Shown here piece by piece: positions 218-35,395 of a stretch of DNA of 56,702 nt. Location: UHGV virus genome UHGV-0213557; one strand, 5' to 3'. Origin of the DNA: a virus. The notes under the pieces are model-generated. The model saw only the letters and a list, made by a program, of their open reading frames with translations, made no database searches and was not told where the DNA came from. The position numbers and the translations under genes were made by a program. Within the stretch, counting starts at the first letter, position 1. The number at the start of each line of letters is the position of its first letter.

Positions 218-1021
218 CTAATTATTTTTATACAATATATAGTAGTTTTTCTTGTCTCCTTTGATTGAGATAGGATTATTATTTTCTTTCAACCACACTT
301 TGACCTTTTCTGTAACCTTATTAGAATATTTTGTTACAGTACCAGTCCAATTGCCATTCGTTTCTAATACTGTTTTCATTTCATCTTCTTTAATATCAAG
401 CTTTCTTATAATTTGCTTAACTGCCATAAATGCTGGTTTATTAGACATTGTGTAAAGTCCTAATTTTTTTGCAATCTGCTTTGTATCATAAAAATGTTCT
501 TTTTCTTCAACTTCAAGAGGCAATTCAATACCTGCTCTTTCAAAAAAAGTCTTAGTTACAAGAAGTTTCATACTTTTATCAATGTTTAAATCATCAAAAA
601 TTGGAGTTATTAACCTAATTGACTCATTAACTGTTTCTAATTTTTCTAATGCTTTCATTTCTTTCTTTTCTTCTTTAACTCTAAAATAACTATTTACCAA
701 TTGTCTTTGTACTTTCCAAGCTAAATCATCTGTAAAAGATTTTACTAACATTAGATAACCTGTTTCAGTTAATAAGATTAATTCTCTTGCATTACTGCCA
801 ACGAAATTCGTTGTCTGTTTAATTGTTGATAATTCTTTTCCTTCTAAATAAAAATAGTCCTCATTTTTTATAAAGTGCTTCTTATTTTCTCTAAAATTTC
901 TACCTGCTGTTCCTTCTACTCTTTCATGTACTCTGTCAATTTCTTTAAATGTAACTACTCTTTGATTATTAAATTCCTTAACTTGCACTTCTTGATTGTT
1001 AATTAGTACTAAATTGTTCAT
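218..1021 (-). CDS. Phage antirepressor (ORF6N-like N-terminal domain + KilA-C C-terminal domain)
   Basis: N-terminus ..VTFKEIDRVHERVEGTAGRNFREN..; C-terminus ..FYDTKQIAKKLG..ETNGNWTGTVTKY.. is shared with 2120-2947. Confidence 0.65.
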   Translation of the reverse strand: MNNLVLINNQEVQVKEFNNQRVVTFKEIDRVHERVEGTAGRNFRENKKHFIKNEDYFYLEGKELSTIKQTTNFVGSNARELILLTETGYLMLVKSFTDDLAWKVQRQLVNSYFRVKEEKKEMKALEKLETVNESIRLITPIFDDLNIDKSMKLLVTKTFFERAGIELPLEVEEKEHFYDTKQIAKKLGLYTMSNKPAFMAVKQIIRKLDIKEDEMKTVLETNGNWTGTVTKYSNKVTEKVKVWLKENNNPISIKGDKKNYYILYKNN

Positions 1022-1159
1022 AAAAACACACTCCTTAATTGATTTTTTTTAAGGAATGACATATACTATAATTAATGTATATGTAGTATATGTCAATAAG
1101 AGTTACTCAAACTTGGTAGGGGCGAGTGGCTCTTATTTTTTATTCCTTAAGTATATTAT

Positions 1160-1262
1160 ATCGCACACATTATATAATGTCAACATTATATAATTATATT
1201 GTTTGCATATTATATATTGCAAACATTATATAATTGTTGTATAATATACTTAAGAGGTGAAA
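1160..1262. promoter_or_regulatory. Operator/promoter region: 24-bp perfect palindrome GTTTGCATATTATATATTGCAAAC plus three direct repeats ACATTATATAAT
   Basis: Palindrome at ~1201-1224; repeats at ~1168, 1184, 1224, immediately upstream of the HTH gene. Confidence 0.5.
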
Positions 1263-1264
1263 AA

Positions 1265-1468
1265 ATGTATTTTAACATTGATAAATTACTTGAATCCAAA
1301 GGTCGAACTAGATATTGGTTAGCTAAAGAAGTAGGTATAGCTTATCCTAACATGATGAAATTAGCTAACAATGAAACAAGTTCTATAAAATTAGATTTAT
1401 TCGAAAAGCTTTGTCTTGTTCTTGAATGTACACCTAATGAACTTGTTACTTTATCTAGCAAAGAATAA
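1265..1468 (+). CDS. XRE-family helix-turn-helix regulator (68 aa from the RBS-preceded ATG; the ORF track extends to a TTG at 1199)
   Basis: aagaggtgaaaaa-ATG; sequence ..YWLAKEVGIAYPNMMKLANNETSSIKLDLFEKLC.. is a Cro/CI-type HTH. Confidence 0.65.
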   Translation: MYFNIDKLLESKGRTRYWLAKEVGIAYPNMMKLANNETSSIKLDLFEKLCLVLECTPNELVTLSSKE

Positions 1469-1480
1469 CAAAAGCACCTA

Positions 1481-1512
1481 CTATTTAAGTAAGTGCTTCT
1501 TTTTTCTATTTA
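1481..1512 (-). terminator. Rho-independent terminator at the distal end of CRISPR array 1 (hairpin AAGCACTTAC..GTAGGTGCTT plus U-run on the minus strand)
   Basis: Inverted repeat aaaagcacctact atttaa gtaagtgcttctttttt; the same element recurs at 3361-3400 and 12282-12320. Confidence 0.6.
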
Positions 1513-1802
1513 ATTTTGAATCCACATAGTTAATATAAAACATAAACATTACTCCACAGCACATGTCAAATGTTGAAACATTTACATACCACTTAGTTAA
1601 TATAAACCTAAAAGCATCTTCTATTAGAAGGTTGAAGGAATTAACATTTACATACCACTTAGTTAATATAAAATCAAGAAATGAGTTCAGCATTATTGCA
1701 GTTAACGCACTTTACATACCACATAGTTAATATAAAATGACCAACGCAGAATTTGAGAAGATGCCTTATACATTCTTTACATACCACATAGTTAATATAA
1801 CT
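1513..1802 (-). CRISPR. CRISPR array 1: five 29-bp repeats (plus-strand reading ATTTACATACCAC[T/A]TAGTTAATATAAAAC), ~37-nt spacers; degenerate terminal repeat at 1513-1541; only a ~70-bp leader remnant at 1803-1875
   Basis: Repeats start ~1513, 1580, 1646, 1710, 1775. Reverse complement matches the C. difficile type I-B repeat GTTTTATATTAACTATGTGGTATGTAAAT. The leader-proximal repeat is at high coordinates, so transcription is leftward. Confidence 0.9.
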
Positions 1803-1880
1803 CTTATCTCTATTATACCATTTTATACCAAACAAAGCACTTGAAACTATGTAATATTCAAGTGCTTTATCTATATTATT

Positions 1881-2075
1881 TTACTTATTTTCTCTCTCTT
1901 GTTGTTCCCTAAGAATACCTCTCAATATCTCTGCATACTCTTGAAATTTTTCTTCATTGTCCTGTTTTAATTTATATAATAATGTAGCAAACTTTACAAA
2001 GTATTCTACATCTTCATCAGTTTTTAAATTATATTCATTAAGTAAATTCTCACACATTGTATTAATCCCCCTCAA
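1881..2075 (-). CDS. Small hypothetical protein (64 aa) between an antirepressor gene and the array 1 leader remnant
   Basis: ORF track; paralog of the 77-187 ORF. Confidence 0.35.
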   Translation of the reverse strand: MRGINTMCENLLNEYNLKTDEDVEYFVKFATLLYKLKQDNEEKFQEYAEILRGILREQQERENK

Positions 2076-2119
2076 AACTAAAATAAACTAAACTAAATTA
2101 TTTAATACAACTGATAAAT

Positions 2120-2947
2120 TTACTCAATCTTATAAACCACATGATAATTCTTCTTTTCACCTGCAATCTTAGCAGGTCTATTATTTTCCTCTATCCAATT
2201 TCTAACCTTATCTATTACACTCTTTGTATATTTATTTACAGTACCAGTCCAAGAACCATTAGTTTCCCAAACGCCTTTGACTTCGTTTTCTTCTAAATCA
2301 ATCTTTTTAATAATTTCACAAACAGCCAACTGTGCTGGTTTATTACTCTTAGAATATATTTTCAGTTTAGATGCTATTTGTTTTGTGTCAAAGAAAGATT
2401 CCTCTTCTTCAATTTCTATAGGTAAATCAATGCCTGCCTTTTTATATAATGTTTTAGCTGTTAATAGTTTGGATTTATTGTCAAATCCTGCACCATCTAG
2501 CAATTCTTTTAACATAGATGTGCTGTTATAGGCTAATTGTAACTTTTCAATCTCACTTGCTTTTTCTCTTAGTTTTTCGGGATTAGCATTGTTAGTTATG
2601 TATGCACCAGTTTGTCTTATTGATGGTAGTACATCTACTGCTAACCATGTTTGAAATTTTACTGCTATTTCATTTTTAGCTTTCATACCTAAAAGATAAA
2701 ATAATGATTCAGGTATATACTCATCTTTCCCCAACAAGTTGAGGAAACCAAATTCTTTACAGTATTTATTAATAGTTTCCCATCTAATTGATACATATTG
2801 CTTACCATTTTTATTCTGTGTCTGACACCATCCAAACCCTACAGCTGTATCCTCTGCATTAATTCCTATACTTCCATCTTCATATTTAATAGTTCTTATT
2901 TTTATTCCTAATTCATTATTTTCAAAATTCATCAGTTCATTATTCAT
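2120..2947 (-). CDS. Phage antirepressor (Bro-N-like N-terminus + KilA-C C-terminus)
   Basis: C-terminus FFDTKQIASKL...ETNGSWTGTVNKYT... is paralogous to 218-1021. Confidence 0.65.
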   Translation of the reverse strand: MNNELMNFENNELGIKIRTIKYEDGSIGINAEDTAVGFGWCQTQNKNGKQYVSIRWETINKYCKEFGFLNLLGKDEYIPESLFYLLGMKAKNEIAVKFQTWLAVDVLPSIRQTGAYITNNANPEKLREKASEIEKLQLAYNSTSMLKELLDGAGFDNKSKLLTAKTLYKKAGIDLPIEIEEEESFFDTKQIASKLKIYSKSNKPAQLAVCEIIKKIDLEENEVKGVWETNGSWTGTVNKYTKSVIDKVRNWIEENNRPAKIAGEKKNYHVVYKIE

Positions 2948-3070
2948 ACAAAAATCACCCTTTCGATTTATTATCTTGAAAGAGTTATCTTTACATGATA
3001 GAATATTTCATATAGAGATAACTCTAGGTTAAGTAGTCCAGTATGCTTTGGTCGGCGTTGGGCTACTTTT

Positions 3071-3244
3071 TTACTTATCTTCCTCCAAAAGTAAGTCTAC
3101 TCCTTTTCTTATTGCTTCTGTTCTAGTAAGATTTTCTTTCTCACAATAATCTAATAATTTTTTATGAGTATTTTCATCAAATCTTACTTTGACATCAATA
3201 TTTTTAGGATTATCAACTTTTGGTCTTCCCATTTTAGAACTCAT
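3071..3244 (-). CDS. Ribbon-helix-helix (CopG/Arc-like) regulator, 57 aa, not in the ORF track
   Basis: Hand translation MSSKMGRPKVDNPKNIDVKVRFDENTHKKLLDYCEKENLTRTEAIRKGVDLL; RBS GGTGA. Promoter region 3255-3305 has TTGTGTTCCA direct repeats flanking a TAATATAAT -10. Confidence 0.5.
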   Translation of the reverse strand: MSSKMGRPKVDNPKNIDVKVRFDENTHKKLLDYCEKENLTRTEAIRKGVDLLLEEDK

Positions 3245-3360
3245 TGTTTCACCTCACTTTTTGTGTTCCATAATATAATTATATTATTTGTGTTCCAAAA
3301 AGTCAATAACTTATCCCAATTTTTTCTAATTATTTTACTCAACCGACCAATTTTGAGCAA

Positions 3361-3400
3361 AACAAAAGCACCTACTATTTAAGTAAGTGCTTTCTTTTTT
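3361..3400 (-). terminator. Terminator hairpin at the distal end of CRISPR array 2
   Basis: Same aaaagcacctactatttaagtaagtgctttcttttt element as at 1481-1512. Confidence 0.55.
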
Positions 3401-3407
3401 CTATTTA

Positions 3408-3831
3408 ATTTTGAATCCACATAGTTAATATAAAACAATTATCCATACCTTTAAAAATTATCTTGCTTCCATTATTTACATACCACTTAGTTAATATAAA
3501 ACATTCAAGAAGTAACTGTAATTGTTCATCTGTAAAATAATTTACATTCCATATAGTTAATCTAAAACGATAGACAAAGCTAGTGCAGACGCTAAAGTAC
3601 AATCATTTACATTCCATATAGTTAATCTAAAACCTTTCATAACTGATGTTAAAGACTCATTATATGTACTATTTACATTCCATATAGTTAATCTAAAACA
3701 GAAAGATTAAAAAATAGAATGATACTTCTTACAACATTTACATTCCATATAGTTAATCTAAAACGAATAACAATAAGAATAACAACAACAATAAAAAGGT
3801 TAATTTACATTCCATATAGTTAATCTAAAAC
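3408..3831 (-). CRISPR. CRISPR array 2: seven repeats. Two distal repeats are the ...CCAC[A/T]TAGTTAATATAAAAC type; five leader-proximal repeats are the variant ATTTACATTCCATATAGTTAATCTAAAAC. Leader at 3832-~4030
   Basis: Repeats start ~3408, 3474, 3540, 3605, 3671, 3736, 3803. Variant reverse complement GTTTTAGATTAACTATATGGAATGTAAAT. Leader (ccccaaaataaac...ctcaaatttgcagtga...gtgcaattgataaca...) is paralogous to 56489-56702. Confidence 0.9.
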
Positions 3832-4029
3832 CCCAAAATAAACTTGGCATTTCCAATACCTACACATACGCATCTCTCTCAAATTTGCAGTGAACCATGA
3901 GTAGTGCAATTGATAACATTTATCACACACCCTCAATACCTTGTATTCCAATTGTTAAACTTCAATTTATCGCAAATATTGCTCACTGCAAAATCTCTAC
4001 ATTTTTATTATATCATAAAAATATTATTT

Positions 4030-4170
4030 TTGAATATCTGTACCAATTTGTGGTATAATAAAAGCAAGGAAATAATTTACTTTATACAAGAGTAGCTATT
4101 TCCATCAAAATTGATTTAAAGAATTATTTTTTTAAATCACCCTTATTGGCGTCTGGGTGATTTTTTATTT
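4030..4170 (+). ncRNA. Putative antisense antitoxin sRNA for toxin 4124-4228: promoter TTGAAT-N18-TGgTATAAT (4030-4059), TSS ~4067, terminator hairpin TCACCC..GGGTGA+T7 at 4137-4170
   Basis: Extended -10 and intrinsic terminator on the plus strand overlapping the toxin 3' end. Confidence 0.4.
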
Positions 4171-4228
4171 TGTCATAAATATAAGCTGATATAACACCAG
4201 CTAGTATGCTTAATAAAAAACCTATCAT
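4124..4228 (-). CDS. Type I toxin-like small membrane peptide (34 aa: MIGFLLSILAGVISAYIYDKIKNHPDANKGDLKK)
   Basis: Hand translation; GGAGGTGAAATTAT-ATG RBS; hydrophobic N-terminal helix plus charged tail; convergent antisense promoter and terminator (next feature). Confidence 0.55.
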   Translation of the reverse strand: MIGFLLSILAGVISAYIYDKIKNHPDANKGDLKK

Positions 4229-4494
4229 ATAATTTCACCTCCTTCCTTATTTGGAATTTGGCGTTTAATATGAAAATAATCACCCTTCGCACTTTCGATT
4301 ATTATCCTTGCTACAATTATTATAACATATAATTATTACATATTTTTCCATTTTTTTTATATAAACAATGAAATTCAAGTAAATAAATACCTACTTATTT
4401 ATATATATTTTATAAATTAATTGCTTTATAATCAAGTTTTCAATTTTTTAATAAAAATTTTTATTTTTTATTTTATATAAACAATATTTTTTCT

Positions 4495-4652
4495 AATTTG
4501 TGGTATAATAAAAGCAAGAAGAACTACAATCTATTTTGCGGTAGAGTGAAGTTCATAATTAAATGAATCTATTTGAACTTATGGAACTTGATTTTAAAAT
4601 CAAATTCCCAGCCACTTTTACTCTTGCCACGAGTTGAGTGGCTTTTTACTTT
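4495..4652 (+). ncRNA. Putative antisense antitoxin sRNA for toxin 4569-4730: TGgTATAAT at 4501-4509, terminator AGCCAC..GTGGCT+Ts at ~4609-4652
   Basis: Paralogous to the 4030-4170 unit (shared aatttgtggtataataaaagcaag). Confidence 0.4.
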
Positions 4653-4730
4653 TAGAAATACTTTACAAATTAAGCAAAATATTAAACTAGCAATAACGCC
4701 AGCTATTACATTAAGTAAAAAGTTATTCAT
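4569..4730 (-). CDS. Type I toxin-like peptide (53 aa: MNNFLLNVIAGVIASLIFCLICKVFLKVKSHSTRGKSKSGWEFDFKIKFHKFK)
   Basis: Hand translation; RBS GGAGGTGGGAAGT-ATG; TM helix plus Lys-rich C-terminus. Toxin promoters (TGTTATAAT, minus strand) at ~4318-4330 and ~4819-4831 give ~80-nt 5'UTRs. Confidence 0.6.
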   Translation of the reverse strand: MNNFLLNVIAGVIASLIFCLICKVFLKVKSHSTRGKSKSGWEFDFKIKFHKFK

Positions 4731-4877
4731 ACTTCCCACCTCCTTTCATTAGGAAGTAGGTTTTATCCCAGTATGAACTCCACTCTATAAATTGTAGATT
4801 ACATCTTCTTGCTAAAAATATTATAACATATAATTATTACATATTTTACCTATTCTATATTTATTTTTTTATTTTGC

Positions 4878-5070: not shown

Positions 5071-5511
5071 TTAGTTTTTTGCTTCTTCTACTTTATCCTC
5101 AAAAGATGTATCAAATCCATTGACTTCATTCACTTTTACTGTATAATTGACATACTCACCTGCTGTAAGCATTGTCTTTAATAACTGAGCTTCTCCCATT
5201 ACTCCATAACTATTTTGGAGTTCGGCATCCTTTAAATCTGGAAATACTGTAGATGCTACACATAATTCAGCTACATAACTATTGTAGTCAATTTCACTTG
5301 TATATTGTCCAGTATGCTTACCATTGTTACCAATCACTTTTACTCTTTTAGTACACTTTCTTCTTAGTGCTTCGTCTTCTTCAGATGATAAAACTTTTAA
5401 TTCCCATTCAACTGGTTTCCCTTCTTTATCTAAAAATCTGTTACTCGCTACATATTTTACATTATCAACCTTTATTGCATTTTGACTTAAAAAAGCACTT
5501 AAATTACTCAT
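5071..5511 (-). CDS. XkdN-like tail assembly chaperone
   Basis: Position immediately after sheath and tube in a PBSX-like tail module; 146 aa, acidic. Confidence 0.45.
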   Translation of the reverse strand: MSNLSAFLSQNAIKVDNVKYVASNRFLDKEGKPVEWELKVLSSEEDEALRRKCTKRVKVIGNNGKHTGQYTSEIDYNSYVAELCVASTVFPDLKDAELQNSYGVMGEAQLLKTMLTAGEYVNYTVKVNEVNGFDTSFEDKVEEAKN

Positions 5512-6069: not shown

Positions 6070-7380
6070 CTAATTAACTGAAACAGTCATATAAAGCTTA
6101 CTCATAGCATTTATTACCTTAACAGCATCAGATACTATGACAGTTTTCTTATCATTTCCAAGCTCTACACTAACATCATCAGTTTTAAAATCTTCTATTG
6201 CCCTTATATTCTCTAATTCTTTATGGTGTTTAACAACATCATTCCAGAAACTTATTCTTCCTGCCTTATCATTCGGAACTTTACCTAAATACTTTTCATT
6301 AAATAAAGTTGCAATATCATTAGCAATTTGGTCAAGTACTCTAACACTTTGGTTACTTGAAAAATCGTCATTTTTATCATCTGTAAATGATACAAAAGTA
6401 TTTATATCCTCTAACACATGAACTTCATCTCCCACCTTGTGGAATATAAATTTACCAGTTTTTAAAGCTTCTTCAAGTTGTATTTGTGTATAATTAACAT
6501 CAACATCAAACTCACCATCATACTTTTTATTAGTATTAGATTTATTTATATCGCATCCTGCTATAACTCCAGCCGCCCAATAAATTAAACTAGATTCTAC
6601 TAATCCAATATCTTTAATCTTATTTTCTACAGACACTACACCTTCATAATCTGCATCACTTTTCTTATATAGTACTGTTTGAAACTTAGCTCCTACCTTA
6701 TCTCTCATTCTCTTTGTAAATTCTACAAATAAACTTTTAATTTCTGTTGTTGTAGCCAAACATCCTAAAGCATTAAAGCTATAGCTTTCTATTTTATCCA
6801 AGAAAGCTTGGTACTCTGCTCCTGTCACAGCTTCGCCATTAGTTCCACCAGTAAATACAAGTCCTGCACTTGCTTCTAGTGTTGCATCCTTCTTCCAAGT
6901 GATATAGTCATTGTCTTGTAAGTCTGTAATAACCTTTGCTATTTGAGTATCTACCTTCTTATTATCTAAAAGTGTTACAACATCAAACTTAGCATTATCA
7001 TCTATATTTGTTGTAACTGTTACTTTTAAGTCATTTCCTCTGATACCACTATATTTTGCTGTGGCTATAGTACAACTGGCTTTAACGCCTTTATTTAATT
7101 TATAAAAATATCCCAACCTTATATTTTTGAATAAATCTCTCAAACCTTTCAGCTTCTCATGAGTATAATCATATCCAAAATACTTCACTGAATACTTCTC
7201 AAAATCATCACTGGTTACTTGAAATACGTCTTCATCTATGCCCCAATCTAACTCTAAAGGTATTGCAACAATACCTCTATCCGATAATGAACTGGTTGCC
7301 CTCTTAGCTGAGATAAAATTTATATAGCTACCTGGTAATATTTTATTCTGTGTTACAAATGTTCCTCCACCTAACGCCAA
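6070..7380 (-). CDS. Contractile tail sheath protein
   Basis: 436 aa; sheath-like N-terminus; synteny sheath-tube-chaperone. Confidence 0.8.
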   Translation of the reverse strand: MALGGGTFVTQNKILPGSYINFISAKRATSSLSDRGIVAIPLELDWGIDEDVFQVTSDDFEKYSVKYFGYDYTHEKLKGLRDLFKNIRLGYFYKLNKGVKASCTIATAKYSGIRGNDLKVTVTTNIDDNAKFDVVTLLDNKKVDTQIAKVITDLQDNDYITWKKDATLEASAGLVFTGGTNGEAVTGAEYQAFLDKIESYSFNALGCLATTTEIKSLFVEFTKRMRDKVGAKFQTVLYKKSDADYEGVVSVENKIKDIGLVESSLIYWAAGVIAGCDINKSNTNKKYDGEFDVDVNYTQIQLEEALKTGKFIFHKVGDEVHVLEDINTFVSFTDDKNDDFSSNQSVRVLDQIANDIATLFNEKYLGKVPNDKAGRISFWNDVVKHHKELENIRAIEDFKTDDVSVELGNDKKTVIVSDAVKVINAMSKLYMTVSVN

Positions 7381-8336: not shown

Positions 8337-9164
8337 TTAAATATTTTTCCATGTTCTTCTATGGACTATATTTGATATAGATGAATATGTTACAGGATAT
8401 ATTTCACTTAGTTGTTTTATTGTATATCCATCAGAATACTTTTTTCTAATTTCTTTTACATCCTCAATAGATAACTTAGCTCTGCTTTCTTCAATAATCT
8501 TAACTTTTTCTATAAGATTATTTCCTACTAATCCCTTAGAATATCTACTTCTTAAGCAAGAATATGAAATACCTGTTTTTTCAGAAAGCTCTATCAATGT
8601 AATTTCTTTTTCTTCATGCTTTACTAATATATTTGTTGACCTATTTCTACATTGTGTCTTTATATCCACCCATCTACAATTGCTTGATTCATAATTTCCT
8701 TCATTATTTATTCTATCAATTGTAAGTTTCTCTGAATATCCATTACTCAATGCCCAATTTGCAAAATTATCATAGCAAAACCATTCATCACACACAATTA
8801 TATTCCTTTCACCATATCTATTGTATCTTTTATTATTTTTATCTGTACATCTAGATATTATACCCTTCCATATACTGTAAAGTCTTTTATTTTGAACCTT
8901 ATATTTCTTTTTAAATTGGTATTTGTCTGTTAAATTTAATTTATCTTGTTCTTTTTTTAAACATCCACAAGATTGTACTAAGCCACTAGTTAAAGAGTCA
9001 GTTCTTATTTCTTTGAAATTTCCACAATCACACTTACATAACCAATATTTTCTATTTCTTTTACCACTTTTTATCTCTTTAGAAAATTTAATGACTCTTA
9101 GCCTTCCAAATTTTTTTCCTGTAATATCTAAAAATTTTGCCATAAAATCACCTCTTTTATACAT
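8337..9164 (-). CDS. HNH homing endonuclease (N-terminal Cys-rich zinc module, central HNH_3-like domain, C-terminal HTH)
   Basis: ..KYWLCKCDCGN..LVQSCGC.., ..LTIDRINNEGNYESSNCRWV.., C-terminal ..YTIKQLSEIYPVTYSSISNIV.. Confidence 0.7.
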   Translation of the reverse strand: MYKRGDFMAKFLDITGKKFGRLRVIKFSKEIKSGKRNRKYWLCKCDCGNFKEIRTDSLTSGLVQSCGCLKKEQDKLNLTDKYQFKKKYKVQNKRLYSIWKGIISRCTDKNNKRYNRYGERNIIVCDEWFCYDNFANWALSNGYSEKLTIDRINNEGNYESSNCRWVDIKTQCRNRSTNILVKHEEKEITLIELSEKTGISYSCLRSRYSKGLVGNNLIEKVKIIEESRAKLSIEDVKEIRKKYSDGYTIKQLSEIYPVTYSSISNIVHRRTWKNI

Positions 9165-9252
9165 TATAAATCAAGAGTTATTCTATGTCCATATTCTACC
9201 TACTTTATAATGTAACACTATTACACTTAGCGTTTACCGATTTTGCTGGGTT

Positions 9253-9543
9253 TTATATGCCCCATTGTGTTAAGGCATATTCAGTCGGATTAACAACCTC
9301 TATAATATAATTATTTCCTTGTTTATACACAGGAAGCGACCTAGCATAAGCCACTCCATTCCATCCTTGTCGTAAGAATCCTGTATCAACTGGTGTTCTT
9401 CTAATTACTTTCCCAAGTAATCGTGCTGCTAATTCTCTTGCTGCATCCTTGCAAAACTTATCTAAATCAATCTTTGTAAGCTCCTCCATCTTTTTACAAA
9501 CTCTTTTAAACTCTCTAAAATCAACACTGCCCCATCTAGCCAT
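9253..9543 (-). CDS. Hypothetical head-tail joining protein
   Basis: Position between capsid and tail genes. Confidence 0.35.
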   Translation of the reverse strand: MARWGSVDFREFKRVCKKMEELTKIDLDKFCKDAARELAARLLGKVIRRTPVDTGFLRQGWNGVAYARSLPVYKQGNNYIIEVVNPTEYALTQWGI

Positions 9544-17404: not shown

Positions 17405-17432
17405 TAAAAAAAGAACTCGTTTGGAGTTCTCA
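17405..17432 (-). terminator. Rho-independent terminator between the nuclease cassette and terS (AGAACTC caaac GAGTTCT + T7 on the minus strand)
   Basis: Perfect 7-bp stem followed by a T-run. Confidence 0.6.
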
Positions 17433-18200
17433 GTTTACAATATCATATCTATGATTGATTCTTACTTTAATATTGTTATATTCAACTTCGGTTATTAAAC
17501 CCAACATTTTCAAAGATTCTATATTTTCATTTAAACAGTCTATAAATCCAAGTTCACTTTCTAATAATCTTAATTCTCCTCCAGCAAATTCCATCTCATC
17601 TATTAATGCTTGCATTTTACATTTTATCATAGTCAGAAGATTATACCTTTTATACTTTAATTTCGTTATTTCATCTACTGTAAACGATATTATTGGCATC
17701 TTATCTGATAAATATAATTTTCTTCTTTTTCCTTCAGCATATTGCCACCCCTTACCTGTCAATCCATTTAAAGAAATAAATATGCCCAATCCCGCATTAT
17801 TTTTATTGCATATTTCTGCTAGTTTAGATACCATTCCTACATCCACTTTTCTACTTTTCCAGTTTTTACATTCACATACTATTTTTGATTTTATATTACA
17901 TAAGAATGGTATTGGTATGTTGTCATTAAACTTAACAAAAACATCTAGCTCATTATCTGTTGTAGACTTATTTACAGATATATCACTTAATATTGTAAAT
18001 CTAGACATTATAAATCTTACTAATTGTTCTAAAATTTTTCCTTTCTCATGATTTTTAGATTTATTCCATTCCTTAGATAATTCTATTTCTTTTATATAAT
18101 TAGAGAATTCGTCTAATAGCATACTGTCATCATAAAAAGGCTCCCAAATTAAATTATCATCACATATGCTTAGATATTCTTTTAAGGTATCTAGACTCAC
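17430..18200 (-). CDS. Mrr-cat-like PD-(D/E)xK restriction-endonuclease-fold protein (256 aa)
   Basis: GKILEQLVRFIMSRF ... NELDVFVKF ... IVCECKNWKSRKVDVGMVSKLAEI ... GLGIFISLNGLTGKG. Confidence 0.6.
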   Translation of the reverse strand: MSLDTLKEYLSICDDNLIWEPFYDDSMLLDEFSNYIKEIELSKEWNKSKNHEKGKILEQLVRFIMSRFTILSDISVNKSTTDNELDVFVKFNDNIPIPFLCNIKSKIVCECKNWKSRKVDVGMVSKLAEICNKNNAGLGIFISLNGLTGKGWQYAEGKRRKLYLSDKMPIISFTVDEITKLKYKRYNLLTMIKCKMQALIDEMEFAGGELRLLESELGFIDCLNENIESLKMLGLITEVEYNNIKVRINHRYDIVN

Positions 18201-21775: not shown

Positions 21776-22315
21776 TCAAATACTTCCTTTATCACTTAAA
21801 GTTACTCATACTTATTAATATCGTTTATAAATTCATAAACCTCATGTACACTATATCCAAACTTTTCAAACCCTTTTACATATCTTCTTATGGAACTTGA
21901 TATACTTCTACCTACTATACAATTCTCATATCCTTGCAACAAGTTTTCTTTTTCCTCTTGCTTCACCATTTGAGAAACTGCTTTTTGAAACTTATTCATT
22001 GCTATTCCCCCATAGTTTTATTGTTTAAAATTAATTTTGCTGTTCTCTATTGCTTTTCTTAGCCTTTCTCTCACATCTTTTACAACAGTAAATTTTTTTA
22101 GACTGTTTTGGGATGTAAAATAATTTACCACACCAATTGCAAATTATTCTTTTATTCATAAAACCACTTCTTTCTCATTTTTCAGGATAGTTGTTATTAC
22201 AATTTTCACACTCTTTCAGATTCAATCTATACTCATAAACCCTACCAGCTATAAAACTTACTGCTACAAGTATCATGATAGCTAACCGCTTCAATAATAA
22301 TTTATATATAAAGAA

Positions 22316-23167
22316 CTAGTTAATATTTGATAAAATATGTGCTATCACATCTATTGTCCAACCATCACCTATGACATTTTGTGCTTGTCTTATACTCAAA
22401 CCTTTTGTATATCCAACTGGTAGCGTCTGCGCTAACTCTAATTCTCTAGTTGTTAAGTATCTGCAGAAAGACCCAAATTCTACTAAACCTGAATTACTAA
22501 ATCTATCTTGTTTTAATGTTACGCAGTTTATTTTGTCTTCATATGTTACATTCTTACAATTTCCATTTAAACCATTACCCCACATTTTTTCTCTACTTGG
22601 AGTTTTTTTAATTTCAAACTCTTTGCAATAATCAAAACTAGTATCTTTATAATCTTGAAAACTAATTTTTAAATCTTTAGGTTGTTGAACATTTAAAATA
22701 TTTGTCCAATATAATCTGTCTCTATTTTGATAACTAACTAAATTGCTATTTATCTTGATTGGTTCAACTCCTAACAATTGGCTTATCATGTTTTCATCTT
22801 TTTTGGGCATCACTACGTTTTCTAAAAGAAAATATTCTGGATTCAATTGTTTTAGAATTCTTATATATTCCCAAAACAAATTACTTTTATCTCCAGTTAA
22901 TCCATCCTGTATTTTATTAGCTATTAATCTTCCTTTACTTAAATTTTGGCATGGGCTTCCGCCAATAAGAATATCTACTTTAGGGATTTTACTTACATTT
23001 AGCTCTCTTACATCTCCAAGTTGTATTGTTTTTGGGTAATTATTCATTGCTACTTTAATCGCAATCTCTTTTATTTCACTTGCAAAATAATTTTCTACTT
23101 TTATTCTAGCTCTCTCAAAAGCAACTTGACCACAACTAATTCCATCGAATAGACTTAATACATTCAT
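22316..23167 (-). CDS. DNA (cytosine-5)-methyltransferase, orphan
   Basis: LSLFDGISCGQ (motif I), GGSPCQNLS (PC motif IV), ENV (motif VI). Confidence 0.85.
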   Translation of the reverse strand: MNVLSLFDGISCGQVAFERARIKVENYFASEIKEIAIKVAMNNYPKTIQLGDVRELNVSKIPKVDILIGGSPCQNLSKGRLIANKIQDGLTGDKSNLFWEYIRILKQLNPEYFLLENVVMPKKDENMISQLLGVEPIKINSNLVSYQNRDRLYWTNILNVQQPKDLKISFQDYKDTSFDYCKEFEIKKTPSREKMWGNGLNGNCKNVTYEDKINCVTLKQDRFSNSGLVEFGSFCRYLTTRELELAQTLPVGYTKGLSIRQAQNVIGDGWTIDVIAHILSNIN

Positions 23168-23400
23168 ATTTGCACCTTCTTATTATCACAATTTTCACAC
23201 CCTTTTAGGTTCAATCTATACTCATAAACTCTACCAGCTATAAAACTTCCTATTACTAATATCACACTAGCTAAGATATTCACTTTTAATCATCTCCTCA
23301 TATTTTTCTCTAGCCTTATCTATAGCAATAAATATATCCTCTCCATTGTCATATAACTCTTTTGCTCTTTTAATTGTATATTCTGTCCTTGAAACTTCCA

Positions 23401-28006: not shown

Positions 28007-28801
28007 TTAACTTAACATTGATAATTGTTTACTACTTTTAAACTTATTAACAAAATAAACTTGACCTTTTCCAGTTATTTTTACTGTTCTAGTTACTTTA
28101 GTACTTCCATCAGGATTATTAATTACTCTTTTTTTAACTTCCATTATTCTTAGATTCATACTTTTCTGTGTTGGAATATTATAATCTTCACCTTTACGCT
28201 TAATTAAATATCCATTTTCTCGCATCCAGGTAAATAATCTGTTTTGTCCTATATCTACTCCATTTTGTTTTATAAGTTTTGCAAGTTCTCCAACTAATAT
28301 AGAATTGTTTGAAGCTGAAACTGCATCAGCAAACAGTACTTTTGGTTGCTGTAACTGAATTACCTTATCTTTTTCTTGATTTTCTAATTGTAATTGTTCT
28401 TTTTCTTCAACTTCTACTAATAACTGTTGCAATGCTTCTTTATATGTAGTTGGTAGTTTAGGTTGTTGTTCTTTTAATACTCGTTCCATTTCATTAAATC
28501 TTCTTACATATCTAGCTGTAAAAATAATACCTTTTTCTCCAGTAAATTTATTTGCTAGAAAGTCACAACCTAATTTTGTTACATTATAGCAAGGTCTACT
28601 TTCATTTTTTGAATCCAAATATGTTGATTTTATAAAGTAATCAACCACAACAAAATTGTTGTCGTTAAGAATATCAATAATTCCTTTTGTTTTTTCTGTT
28701 CCTTCTAATTTCCTTAAGACTTCCCAGTGTCTGATTTCTAACATATCAGCAATTTCTAATGTTGTTATTGTATTTTTATTGTTAAGTTGCAAATTATTCA
28801 T
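28007..28801 (-). CDS. Antirepressor (Rha-like N-terminus + KilA-C/AntA-like C-terminus)
   Basis: ..LFTWMRENGYLIKRKGEDYNIPTQKSMNLRIMEV..; paralog of 31258-32070. Confidence 0.65.
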   Translation of the reverse strand: MNNLQLNNKNTITTLEIADMLEIRHWEVLRKLEGTEKTKGIIDILNDNNFVVVDYFIKSTYLDSKNESRPCYNVTKLGCDFLANKFTGEKGIIFTARYVRRFNEMERVLKEQQPKLPTTYKEALQQLLVEVEEKEQLQLENQEKDKVIQLQQPKVLFADAVSASNNSILVGELAKLIKQNGVDIGQNRLFTWMRENGYLIKRKGEDYNIPTQKSMNLRIMEVKKRVINNPDGSTKVTRTVKITGKGQVYFVNKFKSSKQLSMLS

Positions 28802-29800: not shown

Positions 29801-30592
29801 TTAATTTTTGCTTAAATCACTTGATATTCCATATTTTAAAGCCATATCTTTTACAATAGCAACATACCCTTCTATGAGTTTCTTATCATCTTGTATTACA
29901 TCTAAATTGTTAACTTTCTCTCTTTTAGATTCAGATACACCTTCTTCTGCCATTTTTCTTCTTTTATTGATCAATCTTCTATGTAGGTCAACTCCAAATC
30001 TCTTATTTAATAATTCATAACTTTCTGTTCTAAGCATATTTATATGTTCAAAACCACCTTGTTTTTTTGCTATTCTTGCAATTAGTTGATGTGTATTTGT
30101 TCTCCAACTATTTGAGTCTAATGAAACTACATCTTTTATTGTTTCAACCTCTGTCTTTGCTTCTAAAGCAATGCTATTTGCTTGATTAACTTGAAGTCTT
30201 AAATCTTTCATTTCTTTTAAACTTTCTATTAATACATCTTCTATACAAGTTGGCTTATGTTGCTTAACTTTGAAATATGTTTCCTCTAAATTATCAAACT
30301 GTTCCCAAGCCTTATCTGTATCTAATATTTTGCAGTGTCTATTTGCTCCTCTTTCAGTCCAAAGATACATTTTTGAAGCAAATTTTAGGTTTTCATATTC
30401 TGTATGAATGCCTTTAAAATTCTTTAAATCATCACCTTGCAATAAAAAATAATGTTTACCTTCAATAAACTTATCTTTGTTATTGTTGAAATTGTTACTT
30501 ATATTTCTTGAGTCAGTTTCATATACATCTGCTAATTGTTGTGTAGTTAGAACTCTCTCATTATTTCTTTCTATTACTTGTAAGTTATTCAT
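29801..30592 (-). CDS. Antirepressor (ORF6N-like)
   Basis: ..RVLTTQQLADVYETDSRNISNNFNNNKDKFIEGKHYF.. Confidence 0.6.
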   Translation of the reverse strand: MNNLQVIERNNERVLTTQQLADVYETDSRNISNNFNNNKDKFIEGKHYFLLQGDDLKNFKGIHTEYENLKFASKMYLWTERGANRHCKILDTDKAWEQFDNLEETYFKVKQHKPTCIEDVLIESLKEMKDLRLQVNQANSIALEAKTEVETIKDVVSLDSNSWRTNTHQLIARIAKKQGGFEHINMLRTESYELLNKRFGVDLHRRLINKRRKMAEEGVSESKREKVNNLDVIQDDKKLIEGYVAIVKDMALKYGISSDLSKN

Positions 30593-31257: not shown

Positions 31258-32070
31258 CTAACATAACATTGAAGTTTGATAACTATACTCTTTTTCTATA
31301 TCTGGTAATATGTTATTTACTTTTAATAAGTCATATAAAAACAATCTTCCCTTTTGAGTCCACTTAGTTGTCATTTTTACATCAGTCATTCCATCACTTC
31401 TAGTTATGTCTATTGTTTCTGAATGAGTGTATCCCTTCCCTTGGTGTTGTTTATATAAAAGCCATTGTCCACTTTGTTTATATTGAATCCCTCTTTCATG
31501 AAGTATTTTATTCATTTCTTTTCCACTCATTCCATAGTCTTTTGCTATTTGAGTTATTGTGACAAGTCCTTTGTTTTTAAGTATCATATCTGTATAATCT
31601 GCCTTTGGTTTTAGTTCTTTTATTACTTGGTCTTTCATTTTTCCTTCTAGTTGTAATTTCTCATTTACTTCTACTTGCTCTATAAGATGTTGTAATGCTT
31701 CTTTATATGTAGTTGGTAGTTTAGGTTGTTCATTTTTTAATACTTGCTCCATTTCTTCAAATTTTTTTGTATATATTCCTGTAAATGCCGTACCTTTTAT
31801 GCCTGTCATTTTATTTGCTATGAAGTCACAACCTATCTTTGTTATTGCATAGCATGGCTTCTCTCTTTTATAATCATCTAAATAAGTATTTTCAATAAAA
31901 TAATCAGATGGGTACAAATCTGTACTCATGTTTTTATTGGCTTCTTCCATTTGGTTTATATAATTTCTTATATCCCTTAGTAAAATCTTGTGTTCTTTTT
32001 CAACCATTAGAGCTATATCTCTACTGTCAGTTGTTAGTTTATTATTAACTTTTACTATTTTTAAATCTTT
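31258..32070 (-). CDS. Antirepressor (Rha-like + AntA/KilA-C); the ORF track's upstream extension to 32151 is unlikely
   Basis: ..TTYKEALQHL.. paralog of 28007-28801. Confidence 0.6.
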   Translation of the reverse strand, partial: KDLKIVKVNNKLTTDSRDIALMVEKEHKILLRDIRNYINQMEEANKNMSTDLYPSDYFIENTYLDDYKREKPCYAITKIGCDFIANKMTGIKGTAFTGIYTKKFEEMEQVLKNEQPKLPTTYKEALQHLIEQVEVNEKLQLEGKMKDQVIKELKPKADYTDMILKNKGLVTITQIAKDYGMSGKEMNKILHERGIQYKQSGQWLLYKQHQGKGYTHSETIDITRSDGMTDVKMTTKWTQKGRLFLYDLLKVNNILPDIEKEYSYQTSMLC

Positions 32071-32075
32071 CATAT

Positions 32076-32297
32076 TTAACTCCTCTCTTTTAAACAACAT
32101 CTTGTTGTATTTGTATTTAAAAAAATTTTTTCTATTGATACTCCAAAACATTTAGATAATTTTATTGCTATTGCTAAACTTGGTACTCTTGTTCCACTTT
32201 CAATCATTCCATAATAACTAGTAGTTATACCTACTTTTAATGCAACATCTTTTTGCTTTAAATTCCTTTCTGTCCTAAGTTCCTTTAGATTGTTCAA
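32076..32297 (-). CDS. XRE-family HTH regulator (Cro-like)
   Basis: ..LKQKDVALKVGITTSYYGMIESGTRVPS.. Confidence 0.7.
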   Translation of the reverse strand: MNNLKELRTERNLKQKDVALKVGITTSYYGMIESGTRVPSLAIAIKLSKCFGVSIEKIFLNTNTTRCCLKERS

Positions 32298-32449: not shown

Positions 32450-33013
32450 ATGAGCATTTTATCAGATAGATTGAAATTTCTTAGGAAAGAAAAAGGTGTA
32501 ATGCAAAAAGAAATTGCCAACTATCTTAACATAACTACTAGTGCATATGGATTTTATGAACAAGGTAAAAGAACACCTACCCCAGAAATGTTATCTAGTT
32601 TAGCTGAATATTTTGGCACTACTGTTGATTATTTAATAGGTAGGTATGATAATAAAGCAAGCAATATTTCTAGCAAAACTTCTTGTAATAATACATTATT
32701 TCAAAAAAGACTAAAAGAACTTAGAGCTGAAAAAAATATGACTCAAGAAGATGTTGCAAATAAATTAAACTTAACCAAAAGCGCTTATGGTTATTATGAA
32801 CAAGGAAAGACAGTTCCTGATGCTTATATGCTATCTAGCCTTGCTGAAATATTTAATGTGACTACTGATTATTTATTAGGTAGGTCTATTGTAAAAAATG
32901 ATATAGACACTGTAGCTGCACATAGAGTTAATCCTCACAAAGATTTACCAGAGGAAGCTCAAGAACAACTCAATGATTATATTGAATTTTTAATAAATAA
33001 GTATAAAAAATAA
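32450..33013 (+). CDS. Tandem double XRE-HTH protein; likely lysogeny repressor (ImmR/CI-like)
   Basis: Two HTH_XRE units (..MQKEIANYLNITTSAYGFYEQGKRTP.. and ..TQEDVANKLNLTKSAYGYYEQGKTVP..); divergent from the Cro-like 32076-32297. Confidence 0.65.
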   Translation: MSILSDRLKFLRKEKGVMQKEIANYLNITTSAYGFYEQGKRTPTPEMLSSLAEYFGTTVDYLIGRYDNKASNISSKTSCNNTLFQKRLKELRAEKNMTQEDVANKLNLTKSAYGYYEQGKTVPDAYMLSSLAEIFNVTTDYLLGRSIVKNDIDTVAAHRVNPHKDLPEEAQEQLNDYIEFLINKYKK

Positions 33014-33036
33014 ATTAAAAGTAGGTGATAAATTAT

Positions 33037-34626
33037 ATGAAATCTATAATATCAGATGTCATAAACCGATTTAATGCTACACCATTTTTATTTGTTGGTT
33101 CTGGTTTAACTAGAAGATACTATAATCTTCCAAATTGGGAGGATTTACTAAAAGTCTTTGCAGAAAAAATTAGTAATGATGACTTTATATATACAAGTTA
33201 TAAAAATAAAGCAAAATCAGAGAACCCAAAAATGGGTATAAATCCTAGAATTGCAGAACTTATTGAAAATGATTTTAATAAAAAATGGTTTTCAGATTCT
33301 TCTATACGAAGCTTAGACTCTAAGTATTTAGATATTGTTAAATCAGGAGTTTCTCCATTTAAGGCAGAAATTGCTATGTATATTAAAAATAATTCTAAAA
33401 TAGTAGATAAATATCAAGATGAAGTTGAAAAACTTAGTAATATCTCTAAAAAAAGTTTATCAGGATTTATTACAACAAATTATGATTGTTTTTTGGAAAC
33501 TATCGTTGATAATTATACAACATATATAGGTCAAGAAAATTTAGTTTTTTCATCTATACAAGGTATTGCAGAAATTTATAAAATTCATGGATGTGTTTCT
33601 TCTCCAAATAGTATTGTAATAAATGAAGCTGATTATATAGACTTTGACAGCAAAAGTGCCTACTTGGCAGCTAAGCTAATGACTATATTTGTTGAGTTTC
33701 CTATCATATTTATTGGTTACTCTGTTACAGATGTAAATATAAAAAAAATACTTAATGCTATAGTTAATTGTCTATCTAATGAAAATGCTAAAAAACTCGA
33801 GGAACGTTTCATATTCATTGAGTATGAAAAAAACTTTAATGATATAGAAATATCAAGTCATACAATTGTTTTTGATAATAAAATGATTACTATGACTAAA
33901 ATTAAACTGGAGGATTTTAATTTACTCTATGAGGCATTATCTGAAAAAAAATCAAAATTACCAGTTAGAATATTAAGAATGTTCAAACAAGAATTTTACG
34001 ATTTCACAATTACTAACAAACCTACTGCTAAAATTCGGGTTGGTAGTGTTGATGATACAAGAATAAAAGATGAAGATTTAGTTTTAGCAGTTGGCAAGGC
34101 AAGTGATTTTGGTCTTAAAGGATTAAAAGGATTAAGTTTTGATGAATGGTATCGTGATATAGTCATGAATGACTTAGAATTTTCATCAGATGAATTACTT
34201 GAATATGCTTATCCATCTTTAATTAAGCAATATAATAAATTACCATTAAATAAACATCTTTTTAATAGCACACTTGAATTTCCAGATTATAGGACAATTG
34301 CACTAGAAAGTGACTTTGAAAATATTATTAGCAATAGTATTAAAAAAAATAGAAATAATACTTACATAAAAAATAGAAGTGTTTATGGTATTTGGAATGA
34401 TGAACATCAATCATTTGAAAAAGCTACAAGACTTATTGCTTTTTTAGAAGAAAAAGAAATTGACACTGAACAGTTAGAAAATCTACTTAAGAAAATATTT
34501 GAGGAAAATCCTAATATTTTAGAGTCTGCAAAAACAAGCGAAAAAACAAATTTAAGAAGGCTTATTAGAATATATGACTACATGAAATACTCTAATATGC
34601 AAAAGAGTCTTGGTTATAGTGAGTAA
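33037..34626 (+). CDS. SIR2_2-family NADase-like domain protein with a ~250-aa C-terminal domain of unknown function
   Basis: PFLFVGSGLTRRYYNLPNWEDLL (as in ThsA AIFAGAGLS...W..LL), ITTNYDCFLE (TTNYD), IYKIHGC (His motif). Start placed at the ATG after GTAGGTGA. Confidence 0.7.
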   Translation: MKSIISDVINRFNATPFLFVGSGLTRRYYNLPNWEDLLKVFAEKISNDDFIYTSYKNKAKSENPKMGINPRIAELIENDFNKKWFSDSSIRSLDSKYLDIVKSGVSPFKAEIAMYIKNNSKIVDKYQDEVEKLSNISKKSLSGFITTNYDCFLETIVDNYTTYIGQENLVFSSIQGIAEIYKIHGCVSSPNSIVINEADYIDFDSKSAYLAAKLMTIFVEFPIIFIGYSVTDVNIKKILNAIVNCLSNENAKKLEERFIFIEYEKNFNDIEISSHTIVFDNKMITMTKIKLEDFNLLYEALSEKKSKLPVRILRMFKQEFYDFTITNKPTAKIRVGSVDDTRIKDEDLVLAVGKASDFGLKGLKGLSFDEWYRDIVMNDLEFSSDELLEYAYPSLIKQYNKLPLNKHLFNSTLEFPDYRTIALESDFENIISNSIKKNRNNTYIKNRSVYGIWNDEHQSFEKATRLIAFLEEKEIDTEQLENLLKKIFEENPNILESAKTSEKTNLRRLIRIYDYMKYSNMQKSLGYSE

Positions 34627-34888: not shown

Positions 34889-35395
34889 ATGAACAAACTA
34901 GACGCACTTTTAGACTTAGCAAATAATGAAGAGATAGAAATTTACTACACTGACAAAATAGCAGATGACATAAAAGGATTGTATATAAACAGACAAGGAC
35001 TAAAAATTATATCATTACTTAATTCATTAAAACAAAACAATGCTAAACTAATAGAAATCTTAGCAGAAGAATTAGGACATCATTTTACCAGTGTTGGAAA
35101 CTATGTATCTTCAAAAAACAGTTACAAAAATAAAATCTTGATAGACAAAACTGAAAACAAAGCACTAAAATGGGCATGTGAATTTCTTATAACAGAAGAA
35201 GAAATAATACATGTTATTAATTCACACGCTACAAGTGTATACGAAATAGCTGAAGAATTACAAGTTAGCATCAACTTCTTACTAAAAAGATTAGAATTTC
35301 TATCAAAAAAGAAAAGCATGTTGGACTTAGGAAATAATAGATTTTTAGTATTAACTAATTTGCCAAATTTCTACATATATGAGGATATTTTTTAA
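34889..35395 (+). CDS. ImmA/IrrE-like metallopeptidase (atypical EELGHH motif)
   Basis: ..ILAEELGHHFTSVG..; position between repressor and integrase. Confidence 0.45.
   Translation: MNKLDALLDLANNEEIEIYYTDKIADDIKGLYINRQGLKIISLLNSLKQNNAKLIEILAEELGHHFTSVGNYVSSKNSYKNKILIDKTENKALKWACEFLITEEEIIHVINSHATSVYEIAEELQVSINFLLKRLEFLSKKKSMLDLGNNRFLVLTNLPNFYIYEDIF

Follow-up and report, generated by a model that had tools for sequence, protein, structure and literature searches.

Three cas-less type I-B CRISPR arrays, one of them with a short leader, in a phiC2-like C. difficile phage genome

Results and discussion

Three arrays form one island in the tail module

We analysed the CRISPR arrays of the viral genome UHGV-0213557, a stretch of 56,702 nucleotides that was studied at its full length and is called the window here. 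Judged by its sequence, the window is the genome of a phiC2-like temperate C. difficile myophage, with a structural module 95-97% identical to those of phiCDKH02, CDMH1 and phiC2. A mismatch-tolerant search for the 29-nt repeat combined with exact counting found 26 repeat copies in three clusters, all read on the minus strand: A1 (positions 1513-1803, 5 repeats and 4 spacers), A2 (3408-3831, 7 repeats and 6 spacers) and A3 (55603-56488, 14 repeats and 13 spacers). The periodicity is regular, with 64-67 nt from repeat start to repeat start and spacers of 35-38 nt in all three arrays. An initial annotation of the window had proposed three minus-strand arrays with these repeat numbers, and exact counting agrees with it except that the spacers number 23 and not 24. 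All 23 are distinct, A1_s1 and A3_s12 being the only related pair.

Joined end to start, the outermost 400 nt on either side of the window align, at 99.9% over 779 nt, with prophage loci that run on without interruption in complete C. difficile chromosomes. The sequence is thus circularly contiguous, which places all three arrays in one island. On the minus strand the order is sheath, tube, XkdN-like chaperone, two type I toxin genes, the A2 leader, A2, a repressor-like open reading frame (ORF), a Bro-N anti-repressor, a small ORF, A1, a convergent helix-turn-helix (HTH) gene, an ORF6N anti-repressor, the A3 leader, A3, a Zn-ribbon ORF (54958-55482, between A3 and the tape measure gene) and the tape measure. 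The XkdN-like tail assembly chaperone (5071-5511, minus strand) is the upstream boundary of the island, with the tape measure protein (TMP; 52500-54893, minus strand) as the downstream one. The annotated position between chaperone and tape measure is thus right, and it is so only through the circular contiguity of the window ends. The layout is that of Hargreaves 2014, with arrays in the tail module between xkdN and TMP. As had been annotated, the window appears to be free of cas genes: among the matches listed for its 79 ORFs in PADLOC, Pfam and NCBIfam, which reach ~1e-16 to 1e-18 in PADLOC and NCBIfam, there was none to a cas family.

Read on the minus strand, the repeat is GTTTTATATTAACTATGTGGTATGTAAAT. 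The gathering score of the Rfam family RF01327 (CRISPR-DR14) is reached by 18 of the 26 repeats, the remainder being mutated or terminal copies. The leader-proximal repeat of A2 has exactly the sequence that Selle 2020 and Rashid 2016 give for the native repeat. With these matches and the 5' CCW protospacer adjacent motif (PAM) described below, the repeats are, on family membership, C. difficile type I-B repeats, in line with the annotated type. Regular periodicity, a family repeat and mobile-element spacers with a CCW PAM were found for the arrays, and a leader with its leader-repeat junction was found at A2 and A3 and not at A1.

Several signals bear on orientation. A leader and a sigma-A-type promoter lie on the high-coordinate side of A2 and A3, and on the low-coordinate side of every array a degenerate last repeat is followed by a strong hairpin and a U-tract. 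The full leader of A2 (3832-4034, minus strand) has a sigma-A-like promoter (4034-4007) in which TTCAAA is separated by 16 nt from TATAAT with an upstream TG, and its 3' motif TTTATTTTGGG abuts repeat 1. The full leader of A3 (56489-56702, minus strand) has an extended -10 element, TGGTATAAT, at 56672-56664 and an upstream hairpin that crosses the window junction (56686-56702 and 1-18). In both, the -10 box lies ~165-170 nt before repeat 1 and the leader ends in TTTATTTTGGG; the distance agrees with the transcribed leaders of strain 630, mapped at 170-200 nt (Boudry 2015, PMC4556805). The hairpins right after the arrays, all on the minus strand, lie at 1470-1500 (A1; common to the convergent HTH gene), 3364-3394 (A2; in a distal flank near-identical to that of A1) and 55561-55590 (A3), with folding energies of -12.8 to -18.1 kcal/mol and z between -5 and -6. 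The polarity is also that of a native leader-repeat construct in the literature (PMC7064742). The minus-strand reading thus follows from the leader and promoter on one side, the terminal repeat and terminator on the other, the CCW PAM and the published polarity.

Spacers match rival phages, prophages and plasmids

Spacers were compared with C. difficile elements and with the window itself. Matches in other C. difficile phages, prophages or plasmids were found for 14 of the 23 spacers, which bears out the proposal that the arrays can target competing phages. Six of these are perfect and carry the CCW motif. The newest spacer of A3, A3_s1, finds its target in 48-kb C. difficile plasmids, and A3_s4 in 45-kb ones, within a GIY-YIG nuclease gene; A2_s2 is found in a 136-kb plasmid and, with one mismatch, in phage AR1086-1; A2_s3 and A3_s8 match TMP genes of related prophages; and A3_s6 matches a LysM tail gene in a related prophage. 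Eight more match at 1-5 mismatches: A1_s1, A1_s2, A3_s9 and A3_s12 in TMP genes, A3_s10 in the TMP gene of phiCD6356, A1_s3 in a Zn-ribbon ORF, A2_s4 in the tail sheath gene of phiCD119 and phiCDHM19, and A2_s1 weakly in phiCD505, in low-complexity sequence with a CCG motif.

With the spacers in minus-strand orientation, a 5' CCW PAM (CCA or CCT) stands directly before the protospacer in 10 of 12 database matches. At 28.5% G+C the chance of CCW is ~0.015 per site, giving P ~3e-17, a value that is overstated because it assumes 12 independent sites and several of the 12 protospacers are the same site in related elements. CCW also precedes most of the matches in related prophages.

The targeted TMP alleles are ~40% identical, at the protein level, to the phage's own TMP, and for all spacers no full self-target was present within the window. 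The only partial self-target is that of A3_s6 in the phage's own LysM tail gene (52123-52162, plus strand), which has a CCA PAM, an identical first 15 nt and 27/37 identities overall; this match is probably too mismatched for interference. The perfect A3_s6 target lies in L069, a related prophage with a LysM protein 95% identical to that of the window. A1_s1 (1739-1774) and A3_s12 (55698-55734) are different spacers, identical at 28/33 positions, that hit the same TMP site in different alleles among phages, which means two independent samplings of that site.

Repeat types are layered within the arrays

The very last, degenerate repeat of every array is of the CCACATAG type (ATGTGG), and the one or two repeats before it are, in each array, of the CCACTTAG type (AAGTGG). 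The remaining repeats are CCACATAG (ATGTGG) in A1 and A3 and ATTTACATTCCATATAGTTAATCTAAAAC in the five leader-proximal units of A2, where a different repeat in the newest units had indeed been annotated. A1 is heterogeneous in its repeats, and its repeat 1 begins with GAG, not GTT; A2 consists of five leader-proximal GTTTTAGATTAACTATATGGAATGTAAAT repeats, one AAGTGG-type repeat and the degenerate terminal one; A3 has eleven identical GTTTTATATTAACTATGTGGTATGTAAAT repeats, two of the AAGTGG type (one of them altered at both ends too) and the degenerate terminal one. The earlier description of one distal and one proximal repeat type in every array was therefore nearly right, the terminal repeat of each array breaking the rule.

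The switch within A2 amounts to three dispersed substitutions, with no intermediate inside the array, and the A2 leader is only 80% identical to that of A3. phiCDKH02 has the same A2 body, and an intermediate repeat type occurs in its other array. As new units would copy the first repeat, a change at the leader end or a recombinational swap there would pass to every later unit. The simplest reading would be that A2 is a recombinational hybrid, its leader end having been exchanged by recombination before the new first repeat was copied into later units. At their distal ends A1 (1462-1542) and A2 (3356-3437) are nearly identical, so the arrays are paralogous duplicates. The proximal repeat of A2 was also considered as a sign of chromosomal origin; this idea was dropped, the same repeat being reported for strain 630 prophage arrays.

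A1 has a short leader with its own promoter

The short leader of A1 (1804-1868, minus strand) consists of a hairpin (1834-1868) and an extended -10 element, TGGTATAAT (1820-1812), 8 nt from repeat 1. The hairpin, with -20.2 kcal/mol and z = -6.2, is the terminator of the upstream anti-repressor operon. When the A2 and A3 leaders were aligned with this region, A1 matched the A3 leader across both the upstream hairpin and the extended -10 and passed after 8 nt into repeat 1; it is without the ~165 nt of transcribed leader, including the TTTATTTTGGG 3' motif, and without the leader-repeat junction, and the first 3 nt of its repeat 1 are GAG in place of GTT. The initial annotation had A1 keep only the distal ~70 bp of a leader. 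The truncation holds; the retained part is not inert, as it comprises a terminator and an extended -10 promoter of its own. Because this promoter is retained, A1 is probably still expressed.

Other prophage lineages, with different spacer sets, have exactly the A1 junction too, and junction variants beginning with GAT, AGA or AAA exist. Judging from these lineages, the truncation is an old and widespread configuration that is not specific to this phage. In members of this short-leader class the whole transcribed leader and the leader-repeat junction are missing, and a strong extended -10 promoter lies 8-10 nt before a first repeat altered at its 5' end. When the 20-base short-leader pattern was searched in one genome per species, the C. 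difficile representative was the sole real match, and 25 others look like chance.

Short-leader arrays show no sign of canonical acquisition

We compared the arrays with those of relatives, namely 7 chromosomal loci and more than 30 IMG/VR relatives. The same four A1 spacers were present in 9 loci with the same island (the 7 chromosomal ones and 2 IMG/VR contigs), save for a single locus that has lost one internal spacer. In A2, relatives L008 and L009 have gained a spacer at the leader end, and the leader end of A3 is polymorphic: L009 has the A3 array of L008 plus one new first spacer, and the two have only distal spacers in common with A3 of the window.

Repeat 1 and repeat 2 are identical in 0 of 24 distinct short-leader arrays versus 26 of 28 full-leader arrays. 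Since standard acquisition duplicates the first repeat, the short-leader arrays would have undergone no canonical acquisition since their truncation. Adjacent internal repeats are identical in 18/74 pairs of short-leader arrays and in 126/161 pairs of full-leader ones. The short-leader array of L024 runs into the window's A3 spacers s9, s11 and s13 and the terminal flank of A3, and in L060 the short-leader first repeat is fused to an A2-type body; differences in content among short-leader arrays can therefore be ascribed to recombination between arrays. From the invariant A1 spacers and the uncopied first repeat we infer that A1 is unable to acquire spacers, which supports the annotated suspicion that it may be inactive for acquisition.

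Relation to known prophage arrays

All phiC2-like prophages were reported to have 2-4 cas-less arrays, with 7-24 spacers in total, between xkdN and TMP, many of the spacers targeting TMP genes (Hargreaves 2014, mBio, PMC4173771). The arrays described here share their position, cas-less state, repeat family and frequent TMP targets, with no substantive difference; the window phage differs in having its own spacer set and is not among deposited phage records. The layout is thus already known, and the observation is a correct reading of a known arrangement. This type of prophage is very common, since the Bro protein between A2 and A1 was found in 1659 blocks of an assembly collection. The best deposited matches to the island are phiCDKH02 (27% of the query) and a 57-kb plasmid (47% of the query at 82% identity), and no identical phage was found in deposited phage and plasmid collections.

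The prophage-borne CRISPR 3/4 and 16/15 of strain 630 and CRISPR 13/14 of phi027 are likewise host-Cas-dependent type I-B arrays with a CCW PAM and have other spacers. For C. difficile a 5' CCW/YCN PAM, expression and host-Cas-dependent interference are established (Boudry 2015, PMC4556805; Maikova 2021, PMC8406132). In strains 630 and R20291, transcripts of homologous prophage arrays rank among the most abundant, and CRISPR 4 and 15 are the most highly expressed arrays of strain 630 (Boudry 2015, PMC4556805). Targets of the prophage arrays CRISPR 3/16 and 4/15 gave zero transconjugants in strain 630, and new spacers were detected only in the chromosomal CRISPR 8 and 9 (Maikova 2021, PMC8406132).

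CRISPR 4/15 of strain 630 is preceded by the exact short-leader junction of A1, and the spacer listed as 'sp1 CRISPR4/15' in the primer table of Maikova 2021 is the first spacer of a three-spacer short-leader array in six relatives (L021-L025 and L027). By homology to CRISPR 4/15, A1 is probably both expressed and proficient in interference. The distance from A1 to the upstream array differs, being taken up by a 1.3-kb anti-repressor cassette here versus ~145 bp in strain 630. In the papers on strain 630, CRISPR 3 and 4 are treated as one co-transcribed array and the truncated leader is not singled out; nor was the short-leader class singled out elsewhere in the literature searched. The sole point that may be new is that short-leader arrays form a conserved class, expressed but probably closed to adaptation.

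Arrays are also known from free phages. That of CDKM15 is linked to a Bro gene (Rashid 2016, PMC5127024), and both CDKM15 and phiCDKH02 (PP767789) have cas-less DR14 arrays beside a Bro-N gene, as here. CDKM15 differs in having a single array, after the TMP gene. phiCDKH02 has the same island position and four A2 spacers (s2-s5) in common with the window, and differs in having two arrays and no short-leader array of the A1 type. In the phiCDKH02 record (L001) the two arrays, at 6899-7255 and 9120-9409, are unannotated, and the XkdN-like chaperone is annotated as 'portal protein'.

Interpretation and alternatives

We consider it very probable that the three orphan type I-B arrays make up a CRISPR island that a temperate phiC2-like myophage of C. 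difficile uses, via the host Cas proteins, against rivals. As each array has a sigma-A promoter of its own and a terminator downstream, its transcription in the lysogen would not depend on the late operon. Host type I-B Cas proteins would process the transcripts and act on incoming DNA that carries a protospacer with a 5' CCW, the main targets being TMP and tail genes of rival phiC2-like phages, a siphophage, phiCD211-like large phages and 45-48 kb plasmids. A2 and A3, with their full leaders of ~165-170 nt, would still grow at the leader end, and A1 would be an expressed fixed memory that changes only by spacer loss or inter-array recombination. A wider proposal, to which we give about an even chance, is that phiC2-like phages keep two kinds of array: full-leader arrays that learn, and short-leader arrays that are an expression-only fixed memory, changed only by recombination with their neighbours, which also deletes or reshuffles the anti-repressor cassettes. 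The anatomy, targets, PAM and comparative dynamics come from this analysis, and expression, interference and host-Cas dependence from the literature.

Several points weigh against this interpretation. The expression and interference of this phage's arrays rest on homologous arrays in the literature, 9 of the 23 spacers are without a match, and the cas-free claim rests on the listed families, so that a weak or fragmentary cas match is possible. With regard to A1, the relatives were retrieved with a pattern that selects short-leader arrays and are a non-random sample. Across lineages the short-leader arrays hold 86 distinct spacers, and leader-end differences separate 7 of 19 related pairs, so acquisition by a non-canonical route is conceivable. 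In the sole adaptation experiment most full-leader arrays also acquired nothing, and the result for CRISPR 3-4 is non-diagnostic (PMC8406132).

One rival reading is that A1 and the other short-leader arrays still acquire spacers, with integration steered by the repeat or by promoter-region sequence, and that A1 is a normal, slow-growing array. The variety of spacers, with at most 11 in each array, and leader-end differences such as that of L074, which has spacer 209 before the first spacer of L073, speak for this view. We nevertheless judge it unlikely: repeat 2 never carries the altered 5' end of repeat 1, the internal short-leader repeats are a mosaic with no homogeneous run, the conserved leader 3' motif is missing from A1, and the A1 spacers are identical in nine close relatives whose A2 and A3 vary at the leader end. 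The clear recombinant arrays, moreover, account for the differences in content.

Two further alternatives concern the island as a whole. Arrays that are inert fossils or hitch-hiking remnants of the host chromosome, unexpressed and unused, would be in keeping with the degenerate distal repeats, the unmatched spacers and the lack of cas genes among the listed matches. Promoter and terminator signals are intact at every array, however, six targets are perfect and PAM-flanked (that of the newest A3 spacer included), leader ends turn over among near-identical prophages, and the homologous arrays of strains 630 and R20291 are highly transcribed, with those of strain 630 blocking conjugation; we therefore regard this explanation as highly improbable. 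RNA anti-CRISPRs built from phage-borne repeats are known, and the arrays could likewise work against the host, as RNA decoys or imitation repeats that tie up Cas proteins and so shield the phage. A phage would gain if host Cas complexes carried phage-chosen guides, and the short-leader array stands directly behind a strong promoter. What was found here, though, is complete repeat-spacer-repeat units, with spacers matching targets that lie next to a PAM in rival elements, and not solitary repeats or repeats lacking target-matching spacers; the homologous short-leader CRISPR 4/15, moreover, gives full interference. A decoy role is accordingly hard to credit.

Under the preferred reading, a CRISPR island used through host Cas, the window is one more example, with its own spacer set, of prophage arrays through which a temperate phage equips its host against competing phages and plasmids, a principle that is already established. 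C. difficile prophage arrays shape phage host range and are relevant to phage therapy and to CRISPR antimicrobials that use the native I-B system. If the proposal on A1 is true, short-leader arrays would be a natural separation of CRISPR expression from adaptation, and would offer a compact native promoter-repeat cassette for engineering.

Neighbouring cassettes and other genes in the window

The gaps between the arrays (218-3244) each contain a small DNA-binding protein gene, an anti-repressor, a small ORF starting with M(C/Y)ENLL and then a hairpin. Between A2 and A1 the cassette (2120-3244, minus strand) comprises a 57-aa repressor-like ORF (3071-3244) and the Bro-N anti-repressor (2120-2947) and is closed by a small ORF (phrog_2435; 1881-2075, minus strand), followed by the hairpin before A1. 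The cassette between A1 and A3 (218-1468) has genes on both strands, an HTH_26 protein (1265-1468, plus) and the ORF6N anti-repressor (218-1021, minus). The anti-repressors of the gaps combine a Bro-N or ORF6N N-terminus with a common C-terminal domain. Three further anti-repressor paralogues are encoded at 28007-28801, 29801-30592 and 31258-32151; the first and the last are KilAC/Rha proteins with a common 254-nt repeat, and the middle one is an ORF6N protein. An identity of the 57-aa ORF as 'virulence factor Srl' was rejected, the similarity being weak (31% over 36 aa) and a search of the literature yielding nothing of use; that name is the annotation of a small ORF before the Bro gene (2776-2964) in the 57-kb circular phiC2-like plasmid NZ_CP149754 (L083).

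Two type I toxin genes lie before the A2 leader (4124-4739, minus strand), a full-length one at 4569-4730 and a truncated one of 34 aa at 4124-4228. Against the NCBIfam model NF047374 (cut-off 60) the ORF at 4569-4739 scores 97.2 bits and that at 4124-4228 scores 53.6 bits, under the cut-off. Each toxin gene faces a convergent plus-strand extended -10 promoter (TGTGGTATAAT, 4049-4059 and 4499-4509), with plus-strand terminators opposite at 4135-4162 and 4626-4642. Candidate antisense (antitoxin) RNAs of ~100-140 nt are predicted from the consensus of these promoters and terminators. Type I toxin-antitoxin modules beside arrays have been described, in strain 630 inside a prophage and, of the phages known, in phi027 only (Maikova 2018, PMC5961336). 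The present genes are alike in the small hydrophobic toxin (NF047374), the convergent opposite-strand promoter and terminator, and the site before an array leader in a prophage; they differ in that the antitoxin RNA is deduced here from consensus signals and the second toxin copy is only 34 aa long and below the cut-off. Modules beside the island would belong to a kind that reportedly aids the maintenance of these mobile elements.

Elsewhere in the window, the integrase gene (35635-36765) is accompanied by genes for a 533-aa SIR2_2-domain protein (33025-34626), a double-HTH protein (32450-33013) and an M78-peptidase-like protein (34889-35395). PADLOC matches within the window include a ThsA-like STALD protein, AbiD/Abi_2 (two ORFs) and PDC-S25 (3e-154); together with the genes beside the integrase, these are candidate prophage-encoded defence genes. 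A 799-aa protein (38582-40981) with leucine-rich repeats and three CWB2 cell-wall-binding domains adjoins the endolysin (an amidase, 41075-41887) and is possibly a surface protein of lysogenic conversion. A Mrr_cat restriction-endonuclease-like ORF (17430-18200) stands right before the terminase genes. A C-5 cytosine methylase ORF (22316-23167), in which only the N-terminal half of the Pfam model is matched, is flanked by 111-nt direct repeats (22191-22301 and 23180-23290).

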